Positions 4,691-64,000 of a DNA stretch of 64,000 nucleotides are shown in pieces. Each line of letters begins with the position of its first letter. The stretch's first letter is position 1. The position numbers and the translations under genes were made by a program. The notes under the pieces are model-generated. The model was given only the letters and a program-made list of their open reading frames with translations. It made no database searches and had not been told where the DNA came from. Source of the DNA: Candidatus Hydrogenedens sp. (GTDB lineage: Bacteria > Hydrogenedentota > Hydrogenedentia > Hydrogenedentales > Hydrogenedentaceae); the NCBI GenBank assembly GCA_049968235.1, contig JBMFRC010000007.1, positions 98,153-162,152 on the forward strand, given 5' to 3'.

Positions 4691-4855
4691 AATACTACAT
4701 CTCTCAATTGATGTATTTTGCATAAATAGGCAGAAAACTTAATATAGTGTTTCTGCCTATTTTTATTTATGTAAAAGAAACCTTTTTCTCTTTTTTAAGT
4801 ATAATAAAAGAAAAAATTTTTTAAATAATTTTCACTAACAATTCAGGATTTTACT

Positions 4856-5851
4856 ATGAACCCAAAACCGATTATTGCTATAACAATGGGAGATATTAAT
4901 GGTATTGGTCCCGAAATAATTGGCAAAGTTTTAATAAATAAAGAAATCTTAAAAATCTGTACCCCCATAATACTCGGAAACATACAGGCATATCAGTACT
5001 ATTGCAGTAAATTAAAAAACTATTTGGAACCCATCAAAATTGATACCCCCGAAGAAGCCCTGCATCTGAAAAACAAAGTCGGCATCATTGAACTGGAATA
5101 TCAAAATTTAAAAATAAGACCAGGAATCATTGACCCAAAAAATAGCATCTCTGCAACCGCATGGATTCACCAGGCAGTTAAATGGTGTATTGAAAAAAGA
5201 TGTGATGCCATTGTAACCTGTCCCATAACGAAAGAAGGGTTAGCCCGAGCAAAAATCCCCTATGATGGACATACTACTATGTTAGCAGACTGGACAAAAA
5301 CAAAAAATTATCGGATGTCTCTATTCGCAGGAAATATGCGAGTTGTTCATCATACCGCTCACAAATCACTACTAAATGCTATTCAGAGTCTTAACAAAAA
5401 AGACTTGATAAAAACTATTGAAATTGGATACAACGCATTAAAAACAATTTGCACGCACACATTTCATATAGGTGTTGCGGGACTGAACCCCCATGCAGGG
5501 GAACAGGGACTTTTCGGAAATGAAGAATTAGATATTATTTCACCAGCCATCAATACATGCAAGAAGAAAGGAATTCCCTGTTCAGGACCTTATCCCCCGG
5601 ATACCATTTTCCGAAGAATGTTCCGGGGGGAATTTGATATGATTATTGCTATGTATCACGACCAGGGACACATCCCTATGAAACTCATAGCCATGGACAA
5701 AGGCGTCAATGTTACATTAGGATTACCCATCATAAGAACATCCGTTGACCATGGGACTGCATTTGATATTGCAGGTAAAGGGATTGCTTGCGAACAAAGT
5801 CTATATCACGCCATAAAACTCGCTATCCAATTCACAAAAAAGAAAGATTGA
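4856..5851 (+). CDS. pdxA: 4-hydroxythreonine-4-phosphate dehydrogenase PdxA
   Basis: 331 aa. IAITMGDINGIGPEII N-terminus and HGTAFDIAGKG C-terminal motif are diagnostic of the PdxA family. Confidence 0.85.
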   Translation: MNPKPIIAITMGDINGIGPEIIGKVLINKEILKICTPIILGNIQAYQYYCSKLKNYLEPIKIDTPEEALHLKNKVGIIELEYQNLKIRPGIIDPKNSISATAWIHQAVKWCIEKRCDAIVTCPITKEGLARAKIPYDGHTTMLADWTKTKNYRMSLFAGNMRVVHHTAHKSLLNAIQSLNKKDLIKTIEIGYNALKTICTHTFHIGVAGLNPHAGEQGLFGNEELDIISPAINTCKKKGIPCSGPYPPDTIFRRMFRGEFDMIIAMYHDQGHIPMKLIAMDKGVNVTLGLPIIRTSVDHGTAFDIAGKGIACEQSLYHAIKLAIQFTKKKD

Positions 5852-53826: not shown

Positions 53827-54063
53827 ATCTTCACATAATTACTGTCCCACCACTGCCCCCCCACTTGTATGGAACGAAGGTAAGTTATTAATTATTGAAG
53901 TTTGGCGTCTTTTACCATCATTTAATAATCATAGCAAAAATTATAGTAATATAAAGTAATCTGTCACTCCTTATAAAAGTATCCGGAATGGAAGTTAAAA
54001 TTTTTACTTACTTTTCTCTATGCTACAATAGGAACGGTTAAAAACTTTTAAGGAGAATTAGGT

Positions 54064-56292
54064 ATGCGAAAAATTTTCTTATTAACGCTTCTTTTTGTTT
54101 GTAGTTCTCTTTTCTGTCAGGCACAGCCTGCAAATTATCCCGACTGCTATGATGAGGTATGGGATACGCCAGGTCAGAATTCATCTGATTCAATGCCTAT
54201 TGGTAATGGAGACATAGGAGCAAATGTTTGGACTGAGGAGAATGGCGATATTGTCGCACTCATCAGTAAAACTGACGCATGGGATGATAACGGTCAGTTG
54301 TTAAAATTGGCTCGTGTCCGTTTCAAGATAACCCCATCCCTTACGGGGACAAATGCAAATTTCTCTCAACGATTACATCTACAACATGGCACGATTAAAA
54401 TACAGGGGAATGCTGGAAAAACAATGGCAATATTTCGTGTAGATGCAAATATGCCCGTGGCGGTTTTGAATGTGGAAAGTAAAGAAAATGTGGATTTACA
54501 GGTAATATTAGAAGTCTGGCGGACAACACCCCGCAATTATACTGAGGATGAAGTCAATCAGAGCAGTTTAATCCAGAAAATTGAAGAAGGTGTGGTGTAT
54601 CCGGATGTTGTGTTGGATAATCCACCTTTTTCAGGGCTATTGGTATATCATCAAAATAATCATTCTATCTGGGGTTACTCAATGGATTTGCAGGGCTTCG
54701 CTGAGTATAAAAATAAATTTACTGACCCCCTATTAAACCGAATCTTTGGTTGTGCGATTTGGTCAAATGATTTAAAAAAGGCAGATACCTTTACCTTAGA
54801 AGGTAAAGGTAAGAAAAATTACACGGTATATATTTTAGGGAAGACCTTGCATCCCTCAACCCCTGATGAGTGGTTGAATACCGTAGTAAAAGAGCGGGAA
54901 AAGGTGCTAAATGTCGTAGAGGATAAAGCATTTGAGCAGCATAAAAACTGGTGGCGAAACTTCTGGCAGAGAAGTTGGATTGTCGCAAGTGGTGATAAGG
55001 ATGCGGAGTGGATTAGCAAAGTATATGCCTTACAACGCTGGGTAACTGCATGCGGAAGTAGAGGTGCATATCCGGTTAAATTTAATGGTTCCATCTTTAC
55101 TGTGGAATGGCGAGAAGGTAATGAACTTAAGTCGGACCCGGACTATCGTCGTTGGGGAGGTGGCTACTGGTGGCAAAATACAAGATTGCCTTACTGGCCT
55201 TTGTTATCTTCCGGTGATTTTGATTTAATGAAGCCTGTATTCGATTTGTATATGAGTATAATGGAAATCAGTAAACTGCGTAGCAAAGTCTATTGGGGGT
55301 GTGAAGGTATTTATATGCCAGAAACTATATATCCCTGGGGGCTATTACGCAATCGCGATTATGGATTTGACCGAACCGGTTTGAAAGTAGGCGAAATTAC
55401 CAATCCATATATCCGCTGGATTTGGGCAAGTGGACTGGAATTAACTTTGATGATGTTGGACTACTATGATTTCACAAAGGATGACGTATTTCTAAAAGAA
55501 ACCTTGCTACCCTATGCCCGTGAGATTATCCGATTTTTTGAAACCCGTTTTCCTAAAAATGAAACCGGAATGCTCATTATACATCCGGCGCAAGCAGTAG
55601 AAACTTATCAGGAAGGTGTAACCGATGATACGCCCACTGTTTCTGGCTTGCATGCAGTTCTACCACGATTAATGGCACTGAACACTACCGAAATTACAAA
55701 TGAAGAAAAATCCCGTTGGGAACAATTATTAAAGTCTGTAGTGCCTGTACCGATTAAAGATGGTCGAATTCAGCCAGCACGCATATTTAACTCCAAACGC
55801 GGGAATGTAGAAAACCCCGAATTATATGCCGTGTTCCCATACCGCATCTTTGCCACCGGCAAACCCAACATAGACATAGCGATTGAAAGTTTCCAGAAAA
55901 GGTATGCAAAAGACTATCACGGCTGGCAACAGGATGCAATTCAGGCAAGTTTCTTAGGACTAACAGATGAAACAAAAAAAATGTTAATTACAAATGCCTA
56001 TCGTAAACACGAAGGTTCGCGTTTCCCCGCATTTTGGGGACCGAACTACGATTGGATACCCGACCAATGCCACGGTGGAAACATTATGAGCACATTACAA
56101 TTCATGCTATTGCAATGGGACAAAGATAACATTTATCTATTCCCCGCATGGGATAAAAACTGGAATGTAGACTTTAAACTCTATGCCCCCTATAACACCT
56201 CTATTCGTTGTATCTTACAGAAGGGGCAAATCCAAATTATAGATGTAACTCCACAGGAAAGAAAAAATAATATAACAATGTATCTGCAATAA
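54064..56292 (+). CDS. Large secreted hypothetical protein (possible glycosidase)
   Basis: 742 aa. Signal peptide MRKIFLLTLLFVCSSLFCQAQ. Family not recognised. Confidence 0.65.
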   Translation: MRKIFLLTLLFVCSSLFCQAQPANYPDCYDEVWDTPGQNSSDSMPIGNGDIGANVWTEENGDIVALISKTDAWDDNGQLLKLARVRFKITPSLTGTNANFSQRLHLQHGTIKIQGNAGKTMAIFRVDANMPVAVLNVESKENVDLQVILEVWRTTPRNYTEDEVNQSSLIQKIEEGVVYPDVVLDNPPFSGLLVYHQNNHSIWGYSMDLQGFAEYKNKFTDPLLNRIFGCAIWSNDLKKADTFTLEGKGKKNYTVYILGKTLHPSTPDEWLNTVVKEREKVLNVVEDKAFEQHKNWWRNFWQRSWIVASGDKDAEWISKVYALQRWVTACGSRGAYPVKFNGSIFTVEWREGNELKSDPDYRRWGGGYWWQNTRLPYWPLLSSGDFDLMKPVFDLYMSIMEISKLRSKVYWGCEGIYMPETIYPWGLLRNRDYGFDRTGLKVGEITNPYIRWIWASGLELTLMMLDYYDFTKDDVFLKETLLPYAREIIRFFETRFPKNETGMLIIHPAQAVETYQEGVTDDTPTVSGLHAVLPRLMALNTTEITNEEKSRWEQLLKSVVPVPIKDGRIQPARIFNSKRGNVENPELYAVFPYRIFATGKPNIDIAIESFQKRYAKDYHGWQQDAIQASFLGLTDETKKMLITNAYRKHEGSRFPAFWGPNYDWIPDQCHGGNIMSTLQFMLLQWDKDNIYLFPAWDKNWNVDFKLYAPYNTSIRCILQKGQIQIIDVTPQERKNNITMYLQ

Positions 56293-56354
56293 AGAAACCT
56301 TTTGCCTTTGTGTTAGTCAAAAGAAAAAAATAACGAACACAAGGACAAAATGAT

Positions 56355-57365
56355 ATGAATTTCAAAATCATTTTGTGGGGATTATTATCTATTTTCCCCA
56401 TAATACTTTTTGCCGATGAAAATACTCTCCCTAAAATGAATCAAATACAGGTTATTGGAACACACAACAGTTATCATAAACGCCCTCAATATCTTTACTG
56501 GGCAAAAGAATATGCGAAACAAACAGAAGACTGGGATTATGAACATCTACCTTTAGATATGCAATTAGAAAATGGTGTCCGTAGTTTTGAGTTAGATATT
56601 CACAATACACCTGAAGGTTGGAAAGTAATGCATGTGCCTAAGTTCGACGATACAAGTACATGCCCAAATTTACAGGAATGTCTGAGAGTTATCCGTGAAT
56701 GGTCAGACAAAAACCAAAAACATGTGCCTATTAGTGTCTTACTTGAATGGAAGTCGGAAGGACCTGTTATTGATAAACGCATAACAGTTCCCAAAAAACA
56801 AGACGTTGAACGAATTGAAGAGGACATACTTGCGGTATGGGACAAAACTAGAATCATCACTCCGGATACTATTCGTGGCGATTTCAAAACACTGGAAGAA
56901 GCAATATTAAAAAAAGGTTGGCTTACTCTGGAACAATCCAGAGGAAAAATCATGTTTATCCTCCATAACAGAAGAAAATTAAGGGATTTCTATCTGGAAG
57001 GGCATCCTAATTTAGAGGGTCGATTAATGTTTGTCAATTCATATCCCGGTGAACCTTACTCTGCAACCATAATAATTGATAACCCTTTTCATGAAGAAAT
57101 ACCCGTATGGGTTCAAAAAGGATACTTTATTCGTGTTTTCGGTGCTAACCCCAAATCGCAGTCTCCCGACAAAATTAGATTAAAAGACGATAAAGCATTT
57201 TCATGTGGTGCTCAGGTTATCTCAACAAACAATCCGCCCGGCGAACCTTACCCCCAAACAGGTTACTTTTTAGTATTCCCCGATGGTTCCACAATTCGCT
57301 GGAATCCTATTAATGGTCCCTCAAATATTGATATATCCCCTGAATCAAAAACCTCCCAAAAATGA
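56355..57365 (+). CDS. Secreted PI-PLC X-domain-like phosphodiesterase
   Basis: 336 aa. Signal peptide. VIGTHNSYH and GVRSFELDIH match the catalytic X-domain signature of Ca-dependent phosphatidylinositol-specific phospholipase C-like enzymes. Confidence 0.6.
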   Translation: MNFKIILWGLLSIFPIILFADENTLPKMNQIQVIGTHNSYHKRPQYLYWAKEYAKQTEDWDYEHLPLDMQLENGVRSFELDIHNTPEGWKVMHVPKFDDTSTCPNLQECLRVIREWSDKNQKHVPISVLLEWKSEGPVIDKRITVPKKQDVERIEEDILAVWDKTRIITPDTIRGDFKTLEEAILKKGWLTLEQSRGKIMFILHNRRKLRDFYLEGHPNLEGRLMFVNSYPGEPYSATIIIDNPFHEEIPVWVQKGYFIRVFGANPKSQSPDKIRLKDDKAFSCGAQVISTNNPPGEPYPQTGYFLVFPDGSTIRWNPINGPSNIDISPESKTSQK

Positions 57366-57742: not shown

Positions 57743-59284
57743 ATGAAAAAGGTTATATGCTTTACAGTAGTAGTAATCACTTTGTGTTTGGCGGTTTCCG
57801 TTCCGGTTTATAGCGTGGATATTACTTTTCTGAATAAGGTTCGTTCCGAGGAAAAGCAGGCATACGCGGAGATAAGCAATGGACAGGTAAAAAATGGATT
57901 GTGTCGGCTGGCTCGTTTGTTTAGGGATGCACCTCTGGATGATATAAGTTGTATAGAGCCGTTATTAGGTCCTTTTCAGTTATTTTGTTATGAGTTATCA
58001 ACTCATAATGAGTTAATAATGCAGAGTTTGGTAGATAGAAACGTTGTTGTTAATTCTGGACGGGAAGAGCCTGTATTACAACCGAATATGTATCCATCGG
58101 ACCGATTATTAATGGCGGGAGCGTATGCATTAAGTGAACCGATGGACACATTTTCCCACGCACATTTATACCACTATATTCCGCAGTTAATAGGAGATAA
58201 AGAGATCTTGCTGAAAGCAGTAGGAGTAGGATTGGGGCTGGTAATCTTTCCAGAAGGTGGAGAGGCACTGGGGATACCAGGGGATTATTATCGGTCATTA
58301 AGTATTCCTTATATGCGTAAACAAATGAGTGTGGAGATACAGCGGTTATTTGTGGAGGTTTATGTGCTTATGCGTATAGATGAGTTAAGTGGTGCTATAA
58401 AAGAGATGGGGAGTTATGGAAATGAATTGAGTAAGCGGGATGACAAGACCTTGTTGTTGGATAAATTAGAAGAATGGGGAATAACAAGGGAAGAGGTAGT
58501 AAGTATATCACCGGGATTGAATTGTATTTCATTAGGTCTGCCAAGTCTGGATGTAAAAGATATAAATTGGGATAGTTTTTTATTGTGGGCGGATATGCTG
58601 AGGAAAACGAGTGATTCGCGGGTGGGGTATATGCTATTGTTTATTTTACGTTATTCTCCATACTTTGGAGAAGAGGTGGAGAATAAGGTTAGAGGGGTAT
58701 TGGAGGATATATGTAAGGAGGTTGGTTCGACAGGTAGAGTGGAGGGGATATATGCTCGTTGTATATTAAATGACTGGGATGCAAGGTCACATCGCGTAAA
58801 AGACTTATATATGCGGACAAAAGAATTACTTCAGACAGGGGTATTACCAGGGGTATATAGTTTCCGGAGTTTGTATAAAGAGCGAGAACGAGCGATAAAT
58901 CTGGCATATAATTATTTTGTTAAATATTGTTGGTATGAATACGGAGTGGAGATAGGTGATGCAATGAGAAGTAGAGACTGGATGAGTAAAGAGTTATTTA
59001 AAAGGGAACCTTTGTATATGAGTATGCGTCGGATAAGGGATGCAACGAATGTATTGAAGTATAAGAAGAACATGGAAGAATTACTTAATTATTACAAGGA
59101 TATAGCGGAGCATACACCTAATCCAGAATTAAAAGAAGAGATGTTGTCCCTTATCAACTCTCCACTTAAGGAAATAGTTCCGCGATTAAAAAATAGTTCG
59201 TCTCCACCCGTAGGGGATATATTATTAGATTGGGCGAGAGAAAGAACAGTGGGGATGTCGGAGAAAAGAGAAAAAGGAAGATAA
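57743..59284 (+). CDS. Secreted hypothetical protein, first gene of a compositionally distinct island
   Basis: 513 aa. Signal peptide MKKVICFTVVVITLCLAVSVPVYS. GAGGAGG RBS. G/T-rich codon usage (AGG, GGG, GTT, TTG) unlike the rest of the window. Confidence 0.65.
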   Translation: MKKVICFTVVVITLCLAVSVPVYSVDITFLNKVRSEEKQAYAEISNGQVKNGLCRLARLFRDAPLDDISCIEPLLGPFQLFCYELSTHNELIMQSLVDRNVVVNSGREEPVLQPNMYPSDRLLMAGAYALSEPMDTFSHAHLYHYIPQLIGDKEILLKAVGVGLGLVIFPEGGEALGIPGDYYRSLSIPYMRKQMSVEIQRLFVEVYVLMRIDELSGAIKEMGSYGNELSKRDDKTLLLDKLEEWGITREEVVSISPGLNCISLGLPSLDVKDINWDSFLLWADMLRKTSDSRVGYMLLFILRYSPYFGEEVENKVRGVLEDICKEVGSTGRVEGIYARCILNDWDARSHRVKDLYMRTKELLQTGVLPGVYSFRSLYKERERAINLAYNYFVKYCWYEYGVEIGDAMRSRDWMSKELFKREPLYMSMRRIRDATNVLKYKKNMEELLNYYKDIAEHTPNPELKEEMLSLINSPLKEIVPRLKNSSSPPVGDILLDWARERTVGMSEKREKGR

Positions 59285-59321
59285 ATATGACTCTGTATAA
59301 TAAATTGAGGAGGAATAAAAT

Positions 59322-61252
59322 ATGAATAAGGAGACAAAGAGACAAAAAAACAAAGAAAATGTAAAGTATGGGTCAAAATATTAATAGTAACAATGGGAAT
59401 AGGAATAATAATCGGTATGAGTGGATGTCCTTCAGAAGTGTGTAAGTGCGGAAATAATGAGCGAACAATAACAACCGAGGTAATTCCACCCGGAGCAGGT
59501 AGCATCTCACTGGAACCGGAGAAAGAATCTTATACTCGGGGCGAGAATGTATTAGTTACATTTACTCCGGAAACTAATTACAAGATGTATATATGGATTG
59601 ATACAAGCAGTTTATTTCATCTTTGTCCATCAAATACAATACTTATGAGGGTAACAGATAATATTCAACTGACGGCGTTACCGTGGTGGACAAAGAGGAA
59701 AGTGCATGTGTTTTGGGATACGTCTTTAGTGGATGTAGAAGTTCCAGAAGATGCAGTAGTACAGAGTCCGGGTTCTTTCGAAGTAGAACGGGAGGTGGAT
59801 AGCCTGGCAACCTTTTCGGGACAGATAAAAGAAAATTTACCACCTTTACCACCTGGTCAAGTTCGGAAGATGCTATGGGATTTGGTATCAATACCAACAC
59901 ATGTAGGACAGAGATGGGGTGAAACGAGTTGTTCGATAGTAGTAGAGGGTCCGTCCTCACCGACAGCGGAGCCAATATACCTGTATGCAACAGCCCAAGC
60001 ATGGGATGAGAGCAGTCCTGTATATAGTATGAATATCTTTCCTGCTTCAATAGTAAATGGGGAAAATTTTGAAGGAAGACTATACTGTAACGGTTGCGGA
60101 TGTGAGTGGTGTACTTGTTTGTCAGCGTTCCCATATGAGTGGACGAATAGTGGGGTTTGTAGGAAGTTTATGTTTTCAATGCGTCCGTCTCCGTATGAAG
60201 CATTTGTGTTCTGGCTGGGAATGCAGGGCTATAATCTATCGCAAAATGCGGAATATACATTTGAGAGTCCAGGTGGAGGTAGTATGAACTTTTATGGACT
60301 TTATGCCCCTCGAATACATCTGTCGCCGTCTGTCGAGGGTCAGGGTGTGATTCACATAGAGTCAGGAGGGTATACAGAGCGATGGGGATATAACCCAATG
60401 CCATTTTGTATTGGAGGAGAATGTTCAGGATGGGTACAGGAGGATATATCTAATTGTGTCAATATCTTAGGCAATAAAGTGGTATTAAAAGCAGAACCGT
60501 GTAACACTTCATGGATATTTGACCATTGGGAATATTTGGACGCGGGTGAAGGTGAGGGAAATTCTGGTAGTTGGGTAGAAATACCGGATGTTGGAGATAG
60601 ACTGAATACCTATATGAACTGGTGGGGTTATCTGGATGAAACTCCGGGGCATCTCCATGTCCCCTGGGGAGAAACCAATTTCCAGGTCAAAGCCGTTTTT
60701 AGAAGATATGGTGTGTTTACGGTACAACCAAATGACCCTCAAATTTGGTGGCATACAATTATATACAATTTTTTTGAGGAAAAGGGTTATAATTCAATAA
60801 TGGTTTTTAGTTTTAATAATTTTTTTGCTATTAGTAATTTTAAAGCTAGTTTACATAATTTGCCTAAATACGATGTTTTTCTATATAGTGGGCACCATGC
60901 TGGTGGTTGTTTGGGGGATGTATCATGGCAAGATATTCTGATTAATAATCACGGGCATGGTTATTTGCTTGTATATCTTTTAGCATGTAATACGGCAAAT
61001 ATAATAATTTATAATGGTCAAGAGATTGATTTAGGGGAAAGATGGAAAGGTGCTTTTAATGCTTCATGTTTTATAGGATTTGAACAAATACTCTCCGAAC
61101 TAGCGGCACAATCTTTCGACACAATGTTTTACCATTTCTTAAGATATTATTTTCCACATTCACCTCGAATGGCTGCTGAATTAGCATCATGGACGACAAC
61201 AGTAGATGTGCGTATTTTAGGAGATGTCTATTTGCCGTTTTGTGAAGGTTGA
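59322..61252 (+). CDS. Cys-rich lipoprotein with C-terminal caspase-like (clan CD) His/Cys dyad motif; start region carries an apparent -1 frameshift in an A7 run
   Basis: The ATG at 59322 has a perfect GAGGAGG SD 9 nt upstream but stops after 20 codons. The main ORF (59393..61252) is in frame -1. Adding one A to a7 (59344-59350) gives MNKETKRQKKQRKCKVWVKILIVTMGIGIIIGMSGC, a textbook lipoprotein signal. The C-terminus holds DVFLYSGHHAGG...(31 aa)...YLLVYLLACNTAN. Confidence 0.6.
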
Positions 61253-61293
61253 TTTATAATGAAGATAAAGCAATCGATACAGGATTGAAAGTT

Positions 61294-62088
61294 ATGTTGA
61301 GATTGGGTGTTATCAGTTTATTTTTAATGGGCTTGGGTTGTGTCAATGAAACTTATAAGTATAACTCTCCGTATGTGATATGGGAATGGAGATTGGGTCC
61401 GCTAAAAGAATTTAAGGAAGGAATCTTTCAAAAGGAGATTGTTGAATTTGCAAATCTTTTTATAAAAGAGTTTTCGTTTGAAAAAGAGGATATATCGCCA
61501 TTTTTATATAGTAAATACTTTGCAGATGGGGATATATATATAACTTTAATATATGTCAGGGATGAGCAAAAAAGAAAACAATGGCAATCTTTACTGGTTG
61601 AATATAGAAAAATAGATATACCTATGTATACGGATTACATAGTTACAATTTCTTTGTTAACCAATCGAGTGGTTCAATTTTATAACGGGGGGGTTCTTAC
61701 TTCATATAGTGGAAACTTGCATTTTTCGAACTCATACATGGACCGTAGATTGAAGATGGACAACGAAAATAATGAGGGTACAATGTGTGTTGAGAAGATA
61801 TCGGAATATATAGGTATCCCTGAAGAAAAAAGAACAAGTGTAGAAATATTTAAAAGTCCATTAGGATTCTTGTATTTTAAGAGTAAGGAGAAAAGTTTTA
61901 ATATTTTGTCAGGACTTGACAGGTATAAAAGTATAAACGATTTTTATTTCGGTATAGTTAGGACCTTATATTTTGACCTGGGTTCCCTTGATAATGAAGA
62001 CAGACCTATATCGGCACCTCTTTTTGAGGGCGTATTAATTTGTATAAAAGATAAGTGGTATCCACTTTTTTATATTTATAATTTTTAA
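61294..62088 (+). CDS. Hypothetical lipoprotein/exported protein
   Basis: The ORF from TTG 61249 overlaps the stop of the previous gene by 4 nt. The likely start is ATG 61294, giving MLRLGVISLFLMGLGC (signal plus Cys). No known domain. Confidence 0.5.
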   Translation: MLRLGVISLFLMGLGCVNETYKYNSPYVIWEWRLGPLKEFKEGIFQKEIVEFANLFIKEFSFEKEDISPFLYSKYFADGDIYITLIYVRDEQKRKQWQSLLVEYRKIDIPMYTDYIVTISLLTNRVVQFYNGGVLTSYSGNLHFSNSYMDRRLKMDNENNEGTMCVEKISEYIGIPEEKRTSVEIFKSPLGFLYFKSKEKSFNILSGLDRYKSINDFYFGIVRTLYFDLGSLDNEDRPISAPLFEGVLICIKDKWYPLFYIYNF

Positions 62089-62140
62089 GTGTGCATGCTT
62101 TTAAGAAGATTGCTAATTATAATATGAAAAAAGGAAGTCA

Positions 62141-62986
62141 ATGATGCTTCTGAATCTTGTTAATTTATTATTAATATTGAGTGGAAATATGAGTGAGGAG
62201 CAAACCTACAAAGAAATAGCACGAAATTTTATCAATGATACAATTCATTATGAGGTAAAAGATATAACAATCGAAAAAACTCCTCTACGTTCTAATTTCC
62301 TTTTATATGACGAGCCAGTAATTACATTAAAAGCAGATAATGCTTACTTATTAAGTATTGGTGAAAAGAGCAAGATCGTATTAAGTTGTATCGGACTCTC
62401 AATTGAAGGAATAGAAGGAGAAAAAATTGATACTGTAAATGATGCTTTTAAGCAACTGTATGAGGTTTTCAAGTATTATAATCTTCCCTTGCAGATTGAA
62501 GAATGTTCTGTAAAGGAGTCTATCGATAAATATATTTTTCAAAAAGAACTTTTATACAACAATATTATATGTAGAAATTCAGGGATACGTGTAGAGATAC
62601 TAAAGAAAAACGGAACTACAATGTCTATACTTTACAAACCTTGTATTGAGCCTTTGAATAAGTTTCCTCCTAAGATTAATGAAAAAGAATTGGAGGAAGT
62701 TCTAAATAATTGGTTAAAAGAACAAACATATTTCCAAAAATATCCAGCAAAGATTTTAGGGGAAGAAAAACTCCGCATTGTAATTGCTCCTAAACTTAAC
62801 CAATACGACCCTAACTCATATAAGAATGTATTGATACAGAGAAGTGCTATAGAAAGGTATTATGCATACGAAATGTCTATCGTATGGGAGGAAAAAGGAA
62901 AAAAATGGTTTGGATGGGTTTGGATTGATGGGAATAGTAAAAAAGTAATAGGGGGATTTCCTAATTATAGTCAAGAAAAGGAATGA
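62141..62986 (+). CDS. Hypothetical exported protein
   Basis: 281 aa. AAGGAAG RBS. N-terminal hydrophobic MMLLNLVNLLLILSG. Confidence 0.55.
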   Translation: MMLLNLVNLLLILSGNMSEEQTYKEIARNFINDTIHYEVKDITIEKTPLRSNFLLYDEPVITLKADNAYLLSIGEKSKIVLSCIGLSIEGIEGEKIDTVNDAFKQLYEVFKYYNLPLQIEECSVKESIDKYIFQKELLYNNIICRNSGIRVEILKKNGTTMSILYKPCIEPLNKFPPKINEKELEEVLNNWLKEQTYFQKYPAKILGEEKLRIVIAPKLNQYDPNSYKNVLIQRSAIERYYAYEMSIVWEEKGKKWFGWVWIDGNSKKVIGGFPNYSQEKE

Positions 62987-63792
62987 AAATGGACAGGATA
63001 AAGCACTATAAACTATTTTTATTATTTCTGCTTATATTATCTTTGATTGGCGTATACTTTGTCGTGCGAAAGAATATTTCTGAGAACATAAAACTGAGAG
63101 GATACATTAGAGTTAAGGATACAGATATAGAAAATATGGGTGTAAGAAAAGAAACCTTTAAAGAGATAGTTACTTTGGTCAGAGAAATCACAAACACCAA
63201 AGATTTTTACAAGATGATATCTATGCCTATGAAATTAGACCTTAATGAACCCTCAGAAAGAACATATCATGCAAAAGGAAAAGACTGTATTAAGATTTAT
63301 TTTTTTATTCTTCCACCAAAAAACAACGGATATTATTCCCTATCTGAGGAACCATATATAGAAATACTCTTTGATAAAGATATCGGAAAAATTATTTACA
63401 TGTGTGATTATACAGATTTTTATCGAAAAATAAGTTTATCTGAAGATTCTAATCGAGAAGATGAAAATGGCTACAAGACCCTGATAAATCTTTTACTAAA
63501 CTACTATGGATATAGTCAAGAGCCTCTTGAATACTTTCAAGTAGAAACTCGAAAAATGGCAGGAAAGGTTAAAATTACTATGAAGTTGAGAGAAAATAGT
63601 GAGGAAGGTAATAATGCAAAATTAACGAAGACATTTTATATTATTTTTAATTCAAGATTTAATAAAATACAATATTTTGATGTATTTACATTAAATTATG
63701 GGAACACAGTTTTATGGTCTTACAGTCCAGATGCAAAATACTATGAAAATAGTCCCCTCATGTTACAAATAAAATCTCTTATAGACAATTAG
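62983..63792 (+). CDS. Hypothetical membrane-anchored protein
   Basis: 269 aa. Overlaps the previous stop by 4 nt (ATGA coupling). N-terminal TM LFLLFLLILSLIGVYFVV. Confidence 0.55.
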   Translation: MKMDRIKHYKLFLLFLLILSLIGVYFVVRKNISENIKLRGYIRVKDTDIENMGVRKETFKEIVTLVREITNTKDFYKMISMPMKLDLNEPSERTYHAKGKDCIKIYFFILPPKNNGYYSLSEEPYIEILFDKDIGKIIYMCDYTDFYRKISLSEDSNREDENGYKTLINLLLNYYGYSQEPLEYFQVETRKMAGKVKITMKLRENSEEGNNAKLTKTFYIIFNSRFNKIQYFDVFTLNYGNTVLWSYSPDAKYYENSPLMLQIKSLIDN

Positions 63793-63926
63793 CCCTAATT
63801 TTTATTATAAAGAAATATTCGTTGATAATGTAAAATTACAAGTGGAATTAAATAACACGATACAGAGGTTTTACCACCGGGAATACTTCTATGTAAGCAA
63901 ATAAGAAAAAGAGACGAGTAGTTGTA

Positions 63927-64000
63927 TGAAAGTGCCGAATGTTGGAGATAGACTGAATACCTATATGAACTGGTGAGGTTATCTGGATGAAACTCCGGGG
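63927..64000 (+). repeat. Partial near-identical copy of an internal segment of gene 59322..61252 (truncated by window end)
   Basis: 63935-64000 matches 60586-60651 (ccgGatgttggagatagactgaatacctatatgaactggtgGggttatctggatgaaactccgggg) with 2 mismatches. One mismatch converts TGG (Trp) to TGA within an ORF starting at ATG 63927 (MKVPNVGDRLNTYMNW*). Confidence 0.5.

Follow-up and report, generated by a model that had tools for sequence, protein, structure and literature searches.

Several families of secreted toxins diversify by exchanging their C-terminal domains while keeping a common carrier. In contact-dependent growth inhibition (CDI) and rearrangement hotspot (Rhs) loci, orphan cdiA-CT/cdiI and Rhs-CT/immunity modules usually lack initiation signals, keep the motif that demarcates the C-terminal (CT) region and occur in arrays, and recombination between main gene and orphan switches the C terminus that is expressed (PMC3150448, PMC3967940). 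Neisseria maf islands carry mafB-CT cassettes with or without start codons, and the same CT can be a cassette in one strain and part of a full-length gene in another (PMC4287609). The myxobacterial sitBAI loci encode lipoprotein polymorphic toxins, SitA, together with an upstream accessory gene (PMC5562445). Caspase-like domains have been catalogued at the C terminus of polymorphic toxins under the name Tox-Caspase (PMC3482391). Here we analyse a 64,000-nucleotide (nt) stretch of the genome of a Candidatus Hydrogenedens sp. (contig JBMFRC010000007.1, positions 98,153 to 162,152; hereafter the window), the last 66 bp of which nearly duplicate part of a lipoprotein gene lying upstream. We consider it probable that these 66 bp are the 5′ end, cut by the window, of an orphan C-terminal cassette that belongs to this lipoprotein gene within a polymorphic-toxin-like locus. 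The organisation is known from CDI, Rhs and MafB; the protein family seems to be undescribed, as far as a limited literature search shows, and the host belongs to an uncultivated phylum.

A repeated lipoprotein segment at the window edge

A repeat search paired the final 83 nt of the window, 63918-64000, with 60567-60649 at 90% identity; the offset is 3351 throughout. When the last 80 nt were scanned without gaps against both strands, 72/80 matched at offset 3351, the sole other match of at least 50/80. The 66-nt core of the repeat, 63935-64000, pairs with 60584-60649 and is identical at 64 of 66 positions, for which chance is not a realistic source. The near-identical repeat with two mismatches that a preliminary description of the window had reported is therefore real and its second copy was correctly placed; the first copy had been given as 60586-60651, which is 2 nt too high. 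One core mismatch, 63938 G>A, changes Asp to Asn. The other, 63976 G>A, turns TGG into TGA and is the Trp-to-stop change already described; it produces an in-frame stop at 63974-63976. The peptide quoted for the copy was also correct, and its ATG, placed at 63927, lies one position earlier (63926-63928), which makes the TGA codon 17. An alternative genetic code for TGA could be ruled out: because 9 of the 38 long open reading frames (ORFs) in the window end in TGA, an ordinary stop codon there, we read it as a true stop.

A homology search with the 619-aa lipoprotein led to a sister contig, JBMFPN010000159.1 (L002; 6461 bp), from a Candidatus Hydrogenedens sp. metagenome-assembled genome (MAG), which encodes a 99% identical protein, P0001. 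L002 matches window 59224-64000 at 99.81% (9 substitutions, 0 indels) and runs 1684 bp further. All sequence past 64000 is read from L002, which belongs to a separate assembly of this species. There, TGG stands where the window has TGA, and the second copy begins an uninterrupted 234-aa ORF (4703-5407), whose product (P0004) bears the NCBI name 'C25 family cysteine peptidase'. Because this 99.8%-identical assembly has TGG and an intact frame, the TGA is strain-specific and not a property of the element: either two very close strains differ at this base or a consensus is in error. We read it as a point mutation in a cassette that is probably not translated alone.

Extension beyond 64000, the check proposed in the preliminary description, was thus done through L002 and found a diverged paralog of the last third of the lipoprotein. 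Divergence into an unrelated gene straight after the 66 bp, which would have spoken for a coincidental or assembly-derived repeat, is not what L002 holds: near-identity continues for about 55 nt before giving way to the diverged true paralog. Nor does the copy mark the distal end of the gene island, as had been stated, since the gene array goes on for at least 1.7 kb in the sister assembly, where a g236-like gene and others come after the peptidase domain.

A sharp junction between near-identity and saturated divergence

The whole of the 234-aa orphan product can be aligned with lipoprotein residues 395-602 (E 4e-37), at 84% identity over 44 aligned junction residues and 29% over the remaining ~164. 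At the nucleotide level the near-identical tract spans L002 4695-4831 (137 nt), equivalent to window 63918 to ~64054, and is about 95% identical; its 120-nt core holds 6 differences between main gene and orphan, and its first 17 nt hold the changes that create the orphan ATG. Both edges are sharp. Directly after ...TTTAGA at the 3′ edge, nucleotide identity is at the random level, and upstream of 63918 lies AT-rich intergenic DNA. Because saturated divergence here adjoins near-identity, synonymous sites included, the pattern indicates that recombination or gene conversion, rather than uniform decay, shaped the pair.

The position of the junction in the protein follows from distant relatives, in which the Pfam Flg_new_2 (divergent InlB B-repeat) match stops exactly where the C-terminal domain starts. 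The junction therefore corresponds to the latter half of the last B-repeat, and the identity tract ends, on its 3′ side, at a domain boundary. Inside the junction, the motif YMNWWG is invariant in the family, with columns Y, M, N, W and G constant in the alignments. The second copy is a stand-alone cassette that consists of a C-terminal domain and a short junction homologous to the full-length gene, and it lies ~3.35 kb downstream of the junction copy of the main gene, past three small envelope-protein genes. The orphan has no signal peptide and no clear Shine–Dalgarno sequence. GGAGG-type Shine–Dalgarno sequences precede the true start of the main gene, the 513-aa gene upstream of it (g513) and other genes, and none precedes the orphans.

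Separately, we asked which of the two domains might be the older. The main-gene domain is 29% identical to the orphan domain and 24-27% identical to the domains of orthologs, compared with 27-32% between orphan and orthologs, which gives no clear support for the orphan as an ancestral domain displaced by a newer one.

Domain exchange and gene conversion in a second species

The same arrangement recurs in a second species, represented by four contigs from independent samples (L007, L009, L010 and L011). Their shared parts are 99.2-99.7% identical among L007, L010 and L011, and 94-96% for L009, its divergent patch included. This species repeats the window layout, with a C-terminal domain (CTa), genes for small downstream proteins of families B, C and A, and then the orphan. 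Three C-terminal domains (P0008, P0007 and P0005) occur behind one leader and junction in different samples. In L007 the CTa-B-C-A block is fused to the main gene, in an ORF that stays open up to the start of the contig and that aligns with the main B-repeat; L010 has the block behind an orphan-type leader, after a family A gene. That leader has no upstream start codon before CTa, and its sole in-frame ATG lies inside the leader itself. The identity between L007 and L010 (99.2%) begins exactly at TGGTATATGAACTGGTGGGG, which encodes the invariant WYMNWWG. A conserved N terminus with strain-variable C termini that are swapped at a conserved motif is therefore found in this related population.

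The junction of L009 differs within itself. Upstream of a patch of ~55 nt, its orphan is orphan-type at 49/50 informative sites; within the patch, which includes a 6-nt indel, it is main-type at 27/27; past the patch it is orphan-type again (4/4). Judged by these sites, the patch is a gene-conversion tract from the main-gene junction. The variable domains, by contrast with this patch, differ as whole units (21-42% identity) and contain no mosaic segments. L010 carries an array of four cassettes, two of them truncated (CT fragment-A; CT fragment-A; CTa-B-C-A; CT-A). A 73-nt inverted repeat of 90% identity (L010 6-78 and 1486-1558) flanks the first family A gene of this array and could mediate an inversion.

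Further relatives have the 513-aa gene, the lipoprotein gene and one family A gene, without an orphan; they are Candidatus Hydrogenedens terephthalicus (L003, L006 and L008) and a Logan assembly (L004 and L005). The lipoprotein gene of Ca. H. terephthalicus (L003 10001-11894) is split into 359 + 282 aa with a 35-nt overlap, its ortholog in L004 has a frame break at a GGGG run similar to that described below for the window, and the 513-aa gene of L004 (338-1882) is split into 309 + 199 aa. The split genes in L003 and L004 may reflect frameshifts, sequencing errors or regulated breaks.

In the species of the window, only main gene and orphan (29%) can be compared. Exact-product look-ups of the 269-aa and 619-aa window ORFs gave no match, and the phospholipase gene upstream of the locus (see below) led to no more than a 3-kb contig, which stops short of the locus. 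GTDB genomes were scanned with a protein pattern: a single protein gave no match, and an alignment found Ca. H. terephthalicus only, without the orphan. The exact 32-nt junction pattern had no match in JGI metagenomes.

A predicted caspase-like peptidase domain

The exchanged domain is a predicted clan CD (caspase-like) cysteine peptidase. An AlphaFold2 model of the orphan P0004, built from a 7-sequence alignment, has a mean predicted local distance difference test score (pLDDT) of 76.8 and a predicted template modelling score (pTM) of 0.76; the stub, residues 1-44, is of low confidence and an alpha/beta domain from residue 45 is confident. Against the PDB, Foldseek matched the model to SAVED-CHAT (8e-9) and gingipain RgpB (3e-5), and further clan CD matches were caspases, separase, C11, legumain and Tce1, a putative cysteine-protease effector of a type VI secretion system (PMC13323088). 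The model shows a caspase-like alpha/beta/alpha fold, and alignment places the predicted catalytic residues on the expected strands in the order His then Cys. This dyad, in the pattern GH...[AG]C, aligns as His501 (nt 60893-60895) and Cys532 (nt 60986-60988) in the main gene, as H111 and C150 in the orphan, and in every relative but P0005. In P0005, an orphan variant (L009 407-1207), Gly-Glu replaces the catalytic Gly-His, and its peptidase domain may be inactive. The model of the full-length lipoprotein is poor (pLDDT 55.5) and shows only beta structure before the confident C-terminal domain.

In the orphan, Pfam Peptidase_C25 matches at E 3e-5 (23.7 bits, cut-off 23.0), and of the 374 profile positions the match covers 219-344, the part that bears the dyad; the main gene's own domain falls below every Pfam threshold. 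We considered family C25 (gingipain) in the strict sense and rejected it, the match being marginal and partial. Because the domain spans ~180 aa, with nothing C-terminal to it and the other gingipain modules absent, we file it under clan CD. A profile of the domain found 156 representatives at E<=1e-3 among 1.84 billion proteins, so that it is not confined to the locus in this phylum. In many of the 156 the domain is C-terminal on B-repeat or leucine-rich repeat (LRR) proteins, the longest of 2467 aa, and there are short proteins among them in which it stands alone.

The lipoprotein gene starts out of frame

The main lipoprotein has a Flg_new_2 match at residues 27-95 and orthologs with 99% (P0001), 47% (P0002) and 56% (P0003) identity. 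Its true start, at 59322, had been taken as the beginning of one gene, 59322..61252; it is out of frame with the main ORF, 59393-61252. The frame is disrupted by a run of seven A residues (A7) at 59344-59350, inside the region that codes for the signal peptide, which is also the run previously described as a homopolymer promoter. Lengthening A7 to A8 in silico restored MNKETKRQKKQRKCKVWVKILIVTMGIGIIIGMSGC, a complete lipoprotein signal with its lipobox Cys (...IIIGMSG followed by C). L002 has the same A7, with no indels relative to the window. The break could be a slipped-strand on/off switch, a site of transcriptional slippage, or decay.

The nine substitutions between the window and L002 fall in the main gene (5), the 75-nt orphan stub (2) and g269 (2). 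Four of the five in the main gene (59473-60827) are nonsynonymous, and three lie in peptidase-domain codons 454-479. This clustering in the lipoprotein gene and the orphan stub may reflect fast or diversifying evolution.

A probable orphan cassette and the alternatives

The observed anatomy of the pair, the sharp boundaries of its identity tract and the alleles recombined at this junction that a related population carries all argue for an orphan C-terminal cassette. Of the options raised in the preliminary description, a silent cassette for gene conversion comes closest: the cassette stands alone without a signal peptide or clear Shine–Dalgarno sequence, and its junction recombines in relatives. 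The antigenic variation attached to that option is unsupported, since whole domains are exchanged or displaced. A recombination scar is apt only in the sense of the sharp edges of the tract.

The ~137-nt stub of the last B-repeat would act as a recombination junction between direct copies. Recombination between them would delete 3351 bp and fuse the export and B-repeat part of the lipoprotein to the alternative peptidase domain. DNA arriving from elsewhere could also integrate at the junction and push the resident domain downstream as an orphan, and short conversion tracts would keep the junction copies similar. As orphan cassettes lack both a signal peptide and a GGAGG-type Shine–Dalgarno sequence, they are presumably not translated alone under normal conditions, so that a stop at codon 17 may do no harm; the homology goes on for ~78 nt past it. 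Such recombination or switching may be ongoing in the species of the window. The domains would be polymorphic effector (toxin-like) proteases and the small secreted proteins encoded after the cassettes (families A, B and C, and g279) their cognate inhibitors or immunity proteins. In a toxin/immunity function we place considerably less confidence than in the cassette and its junction.

A broader possibility, which we put forward tentatively and as rather doubtful, is a polymorphic surface protease family of Hydrogenedentes. The lipoprotein would display interchangeable caspase-like domains, each with a secreted, possibly PepSY-like, inhibitor, and would serve kin discrimination or competition through extracellular or periplasmic proteolysis, with cassettes switched at WYMNWWG and on/off control at A7.

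Several points weigh against an orphan cassette of a polymorphic-toxin-like locus. The sequence past base 64000 comes from another assembly and not from the window genome. In the species of the window no recombinant of the main N terminus with the orphan domain was seen, and the evidence for recombination comes from the related population. The C-terminal variants all share one fold, and classic polymorphic toxins often have unrelated C termini. Toxicity and immunity are putative. Searches of the small downstream proteins against Pfam and NCBIfam, and of the PDB with a family A profile, revealed no recognised immunity domain, and a tight pairing of domain type with partner type was not demonstrable. 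The orphan has an ATG and an NCBI gene annotation and may be expressed in its own right. Finally, in both assemblies the A7 run puts the start of the main gene out of frame, and frameshifts occur in several relatives, so the whole locus could be decaying.

This last point leads to the most serious alternative, which we nevertheless regard as unlikely: a plain decaying partial duplicate, in which the 3′ third of the lipoprotein gene was duplicated in tandem long ago and the identity tract is the by-product, without a role, of one accidental conversion. The nonsense codon 17 of the window strain fits such a history, as do the missing signal peptide, the weak Shine–Dalgarno sequence of the orphan, the out-of-frame start of the main gene, and the frameshifts and truncated cassettes of relatives (P0009 among them). 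The decaying paralog named in the preliminary description accordingly suits the window strain; it does not suit the 99.8%-identical MAG, which keeps the dyad and an unbroken ORF of 234 aa. Moreover, the layout of main gene plus orphan recurs in another species, and full-length alternative domains there are open and swapped at the same junction, a pattern difficult to account for unless the cassettes or the junction are under selection.

It is improbable that the orphan is instead an independent, small C25-like peptidase made from its own ATG, with the TGA as a sequencing or consensus error or a recent knockout. The ATG at 63926, the intact L002 ORF annotated as a C25 family cysteine peptidase and the many short stand-alone homologs would agree with this, and MafB-CT cassettes that have start codons are regarded as potentially translated (PMC4287609). 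However, the first 43 residues of such an enzyme would be half a B-repeat, modelled with low confidence; it would have no export signal, although the domain elsewhere sits on exported proteins, and no GGAG-type Shine–Dalgarno sequence; and in L010 one orphan leader is not preceded by a start codon.

Programmed antigenic variation, in which frequent segmental conversion from silent cassettes, as in pilE/pilS and vlsE, is combined with homopolymer phase variation, seems very improbable to us. A surface lipoprotein followed by a cassette without an evident promoter or Shine–Dalgarno sequence, an A7 run that breaks the frame at the start and a conversion patch in one relative are what that reading would lead one to expect. 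Yet the sole conversion patch lies in the conserved junction and not in the variable part; the variable domains differ as whole units; only one cassette is present in the 1.7 kb readable past the window in L002; the A7 is the same in both assemblies; and the sources of the relatives are anaerobic reactors and environmental metagenomes rather than hosts with adaptive immunity.

An assembly artefact, that is, a collapsed or chimeric repeat at a contig end, might be suspected in apparently metagenomic sequence with a sister MAG that is fragmented around the locus, and has next to nothing to recommend it given that the two assemblies agree save for 9 substitutions, the repeat is shorter than typical reads and the same structure stands in four contigs of another species from independent samples.

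Comparison with known polymorphic systems

If the window ends in an orphan cassette, its closest counterparts are the CDI and Rhs loci. There, as here, a full-length gene for an exported protein precedes stand-alone alternative C-terminal fragments that share a short homology with the main gene up to a motif; the fragments lack export signals and usually initiation signals, small genes follow each of them, and cassettes form arrays. The junction at YMNWWG would correspond to the VENN region of CdiA, the core/tip boundary of Rhs and the DWVKN region of class 3 MafB. Three differences stand out. The carrier is a lipoprotein with InlB B-repeats and not a two-partner-secretion or Rhs/YD-repeat scaffold; the C termini share one fold, a small caspase-like peptidase, whereas those of CDI and Rhs are unrelated toxins; and each cassette has 1-3 small secreted proteins in place of a single cytoplasmic immunity protein. 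Toxicity and immunity are putative here.

MafB offers the likeness of a compact, non-filamentous secreted protein with a conserved N terminus and a variable C terminus, downstream CT cassettes and an upstream accessory gene. A short conserved motif is common to cassette and main gene (DWVKN in MafB), and the same C-terminal domain can be a cassette in one strain and part of a full-length gene in another. There is no sequence relationship, and MafB toxins are nucleases, deaminases and similar enzymes with small cytoplasmic immunity proteins. SitA shares a lipoprotein effector with a variable C-terminal domain, an upstream accessory gene with a Sec signal and a partner gene after it, and needs no dedicated secretion machine; its C termini differ in being nucleases, delivered by TraA/B outer-membrane exchange (PMC5562445). 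The apparent likeness to SitA is one of organisation, no homology having been seen, and in the window it consists of the lipobox, with the proper start out of frame at A7, and the Sec-type 513-aa upstream gene. With Tox-Caspase, clan CD and C25 proteins the domain shares a caspase-like alpha/beta fold, a His-then-Cys dyad and the C-terminal-most position on exported multi-domain proteins. At ~180 aa it is much smaller than gingipain C25 and is without the C25 N-terminal subdomain, the Ig-like domain and the C-terminal domain of the type IX secretion system.

Read in this way, the odd short repeat at the window edge belongs to a genetic device of a familiar type, a reserve cassette with a junction for recombination. 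If the proposed function is correct, the scheme of orphan cassettes known from CDI, Rhs and MafB would also be used by a lipoprotein carrier with a protease warhead, in a candidate phylum without cultured members, and would offer a handle on how cells antagonise one another or remodel their surface in anaerobic digester communities. A family of small caspase-like domains that sit C-terminally on B-repeat and LRR surface proteins would be defined as well. For annotation, it warns that ~230-aa 'C25 family cysteine peptidase' genes without signals may be cassettes and not separately made enzymes.

Neighbouring genes

The features of the locus are listed in Table 1. In every relative the 513-aa gene immediately precedes the lipoprotein gene (L003, 509 aa, 49% identity; L004, 51-66%). 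Each cassette is followed by 1-3 small genes with signal peptides or transmembrane anchors, and the last gene of each complete module is of family A. None of the small downstream proteins matched Pfam or NCBIfam.

Table 1 Features of the lipoprotein locus, in window coordinates
Feature	Position	Strand	Description
Upstream partner gene, 513 aa	57743..59284	+	Sec signal peptide; no Pfam or NCBIfam match
True lipoprotein gene start	59322..59384	+	ATG with strong gaggagg Shine–Dalgarno sequence; out of frame with main ORF
Main lipoprotein ORF, 619 aa as listed	59393..61252	+	InlB B-repeat region and predicted C-terminal caspase-like peptidase domain
Junction copy 1	60567..60703	+	Second half of last B-repeat (...VGDRLNTYMNWWGYLDETPGHLHVPWGETNFQVKAVFR); YMNWWG motif inside
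C-terminal domain 1 of main gene	60704..61252	+	Predicted small caspase-like Cys peptidase; dyad from alignment, fold from the model of its paralog
g279, small envelope protein	61249..62088	+	Lipoprotein-like N terminus; no homolog found
g281, small secreted protein, family A	62141..62986	+	Candidate cognate partner (inhibitor or immunity protein)
g269, small membrane-anchored protein, family C	62983..63792	+	Homologous to L7_292 (E 1e-5)
Junction copy 2	63918..64000	+	Cut by window end; extends to ~64054 according to L002
Orphan C-terminal cassette ORF, 5′ part	63926..64000	+	ATG 63926; TGA at 63974-63976 in window strain

The family A protein g281 has homologs in L7_291 (E 7e-22) and L3_336 (3e-8), and L4_300 is linked to it through L3_336 and L7_291. 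Family A members have Sec-type N termini and a conserved C-terminal half (…CR.KG…P.N.KP…LVIAP…FYYAWEVP…IWID…EVIG) with a PepSY-like strand ending. The family had no Pfam match at threshold and its profile no sequence match in the PDB; a single weak PepSY match among 7 members (E 0.021) is kept as a hint. From these alignments we take family A to be an uncharacterised secreted protein family tied to the peptidase cassettes. We also considered whether the domain type co-varies with the family B partner; this was unsupported, as both pairs are ~29% identical. A promoter and terminator scan performed no better than on shuffled sequence and found nothing between g269 and the orphan.

The surroundings of the locus differ in each relative. 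In the window, a GH95/DUF5703 glycoside hydrolase and a Ca2+-dependent phospholipase resembling phosphatidylinositol-specific phospholipase C (PI-PLC), both with signal peptides, are encoded directly upstream, at 54064-57365. GC skew is negative in all 2-kb bins from 1 to 54 kb, irrespective of gene strand, and positive from 54 to 64 kb, with a peak of +0.30 to +0.35 at 58-62 kb. The switch near 54000 points to an inversion, to foreign DNA or to a replication landmark where this gene block begins.

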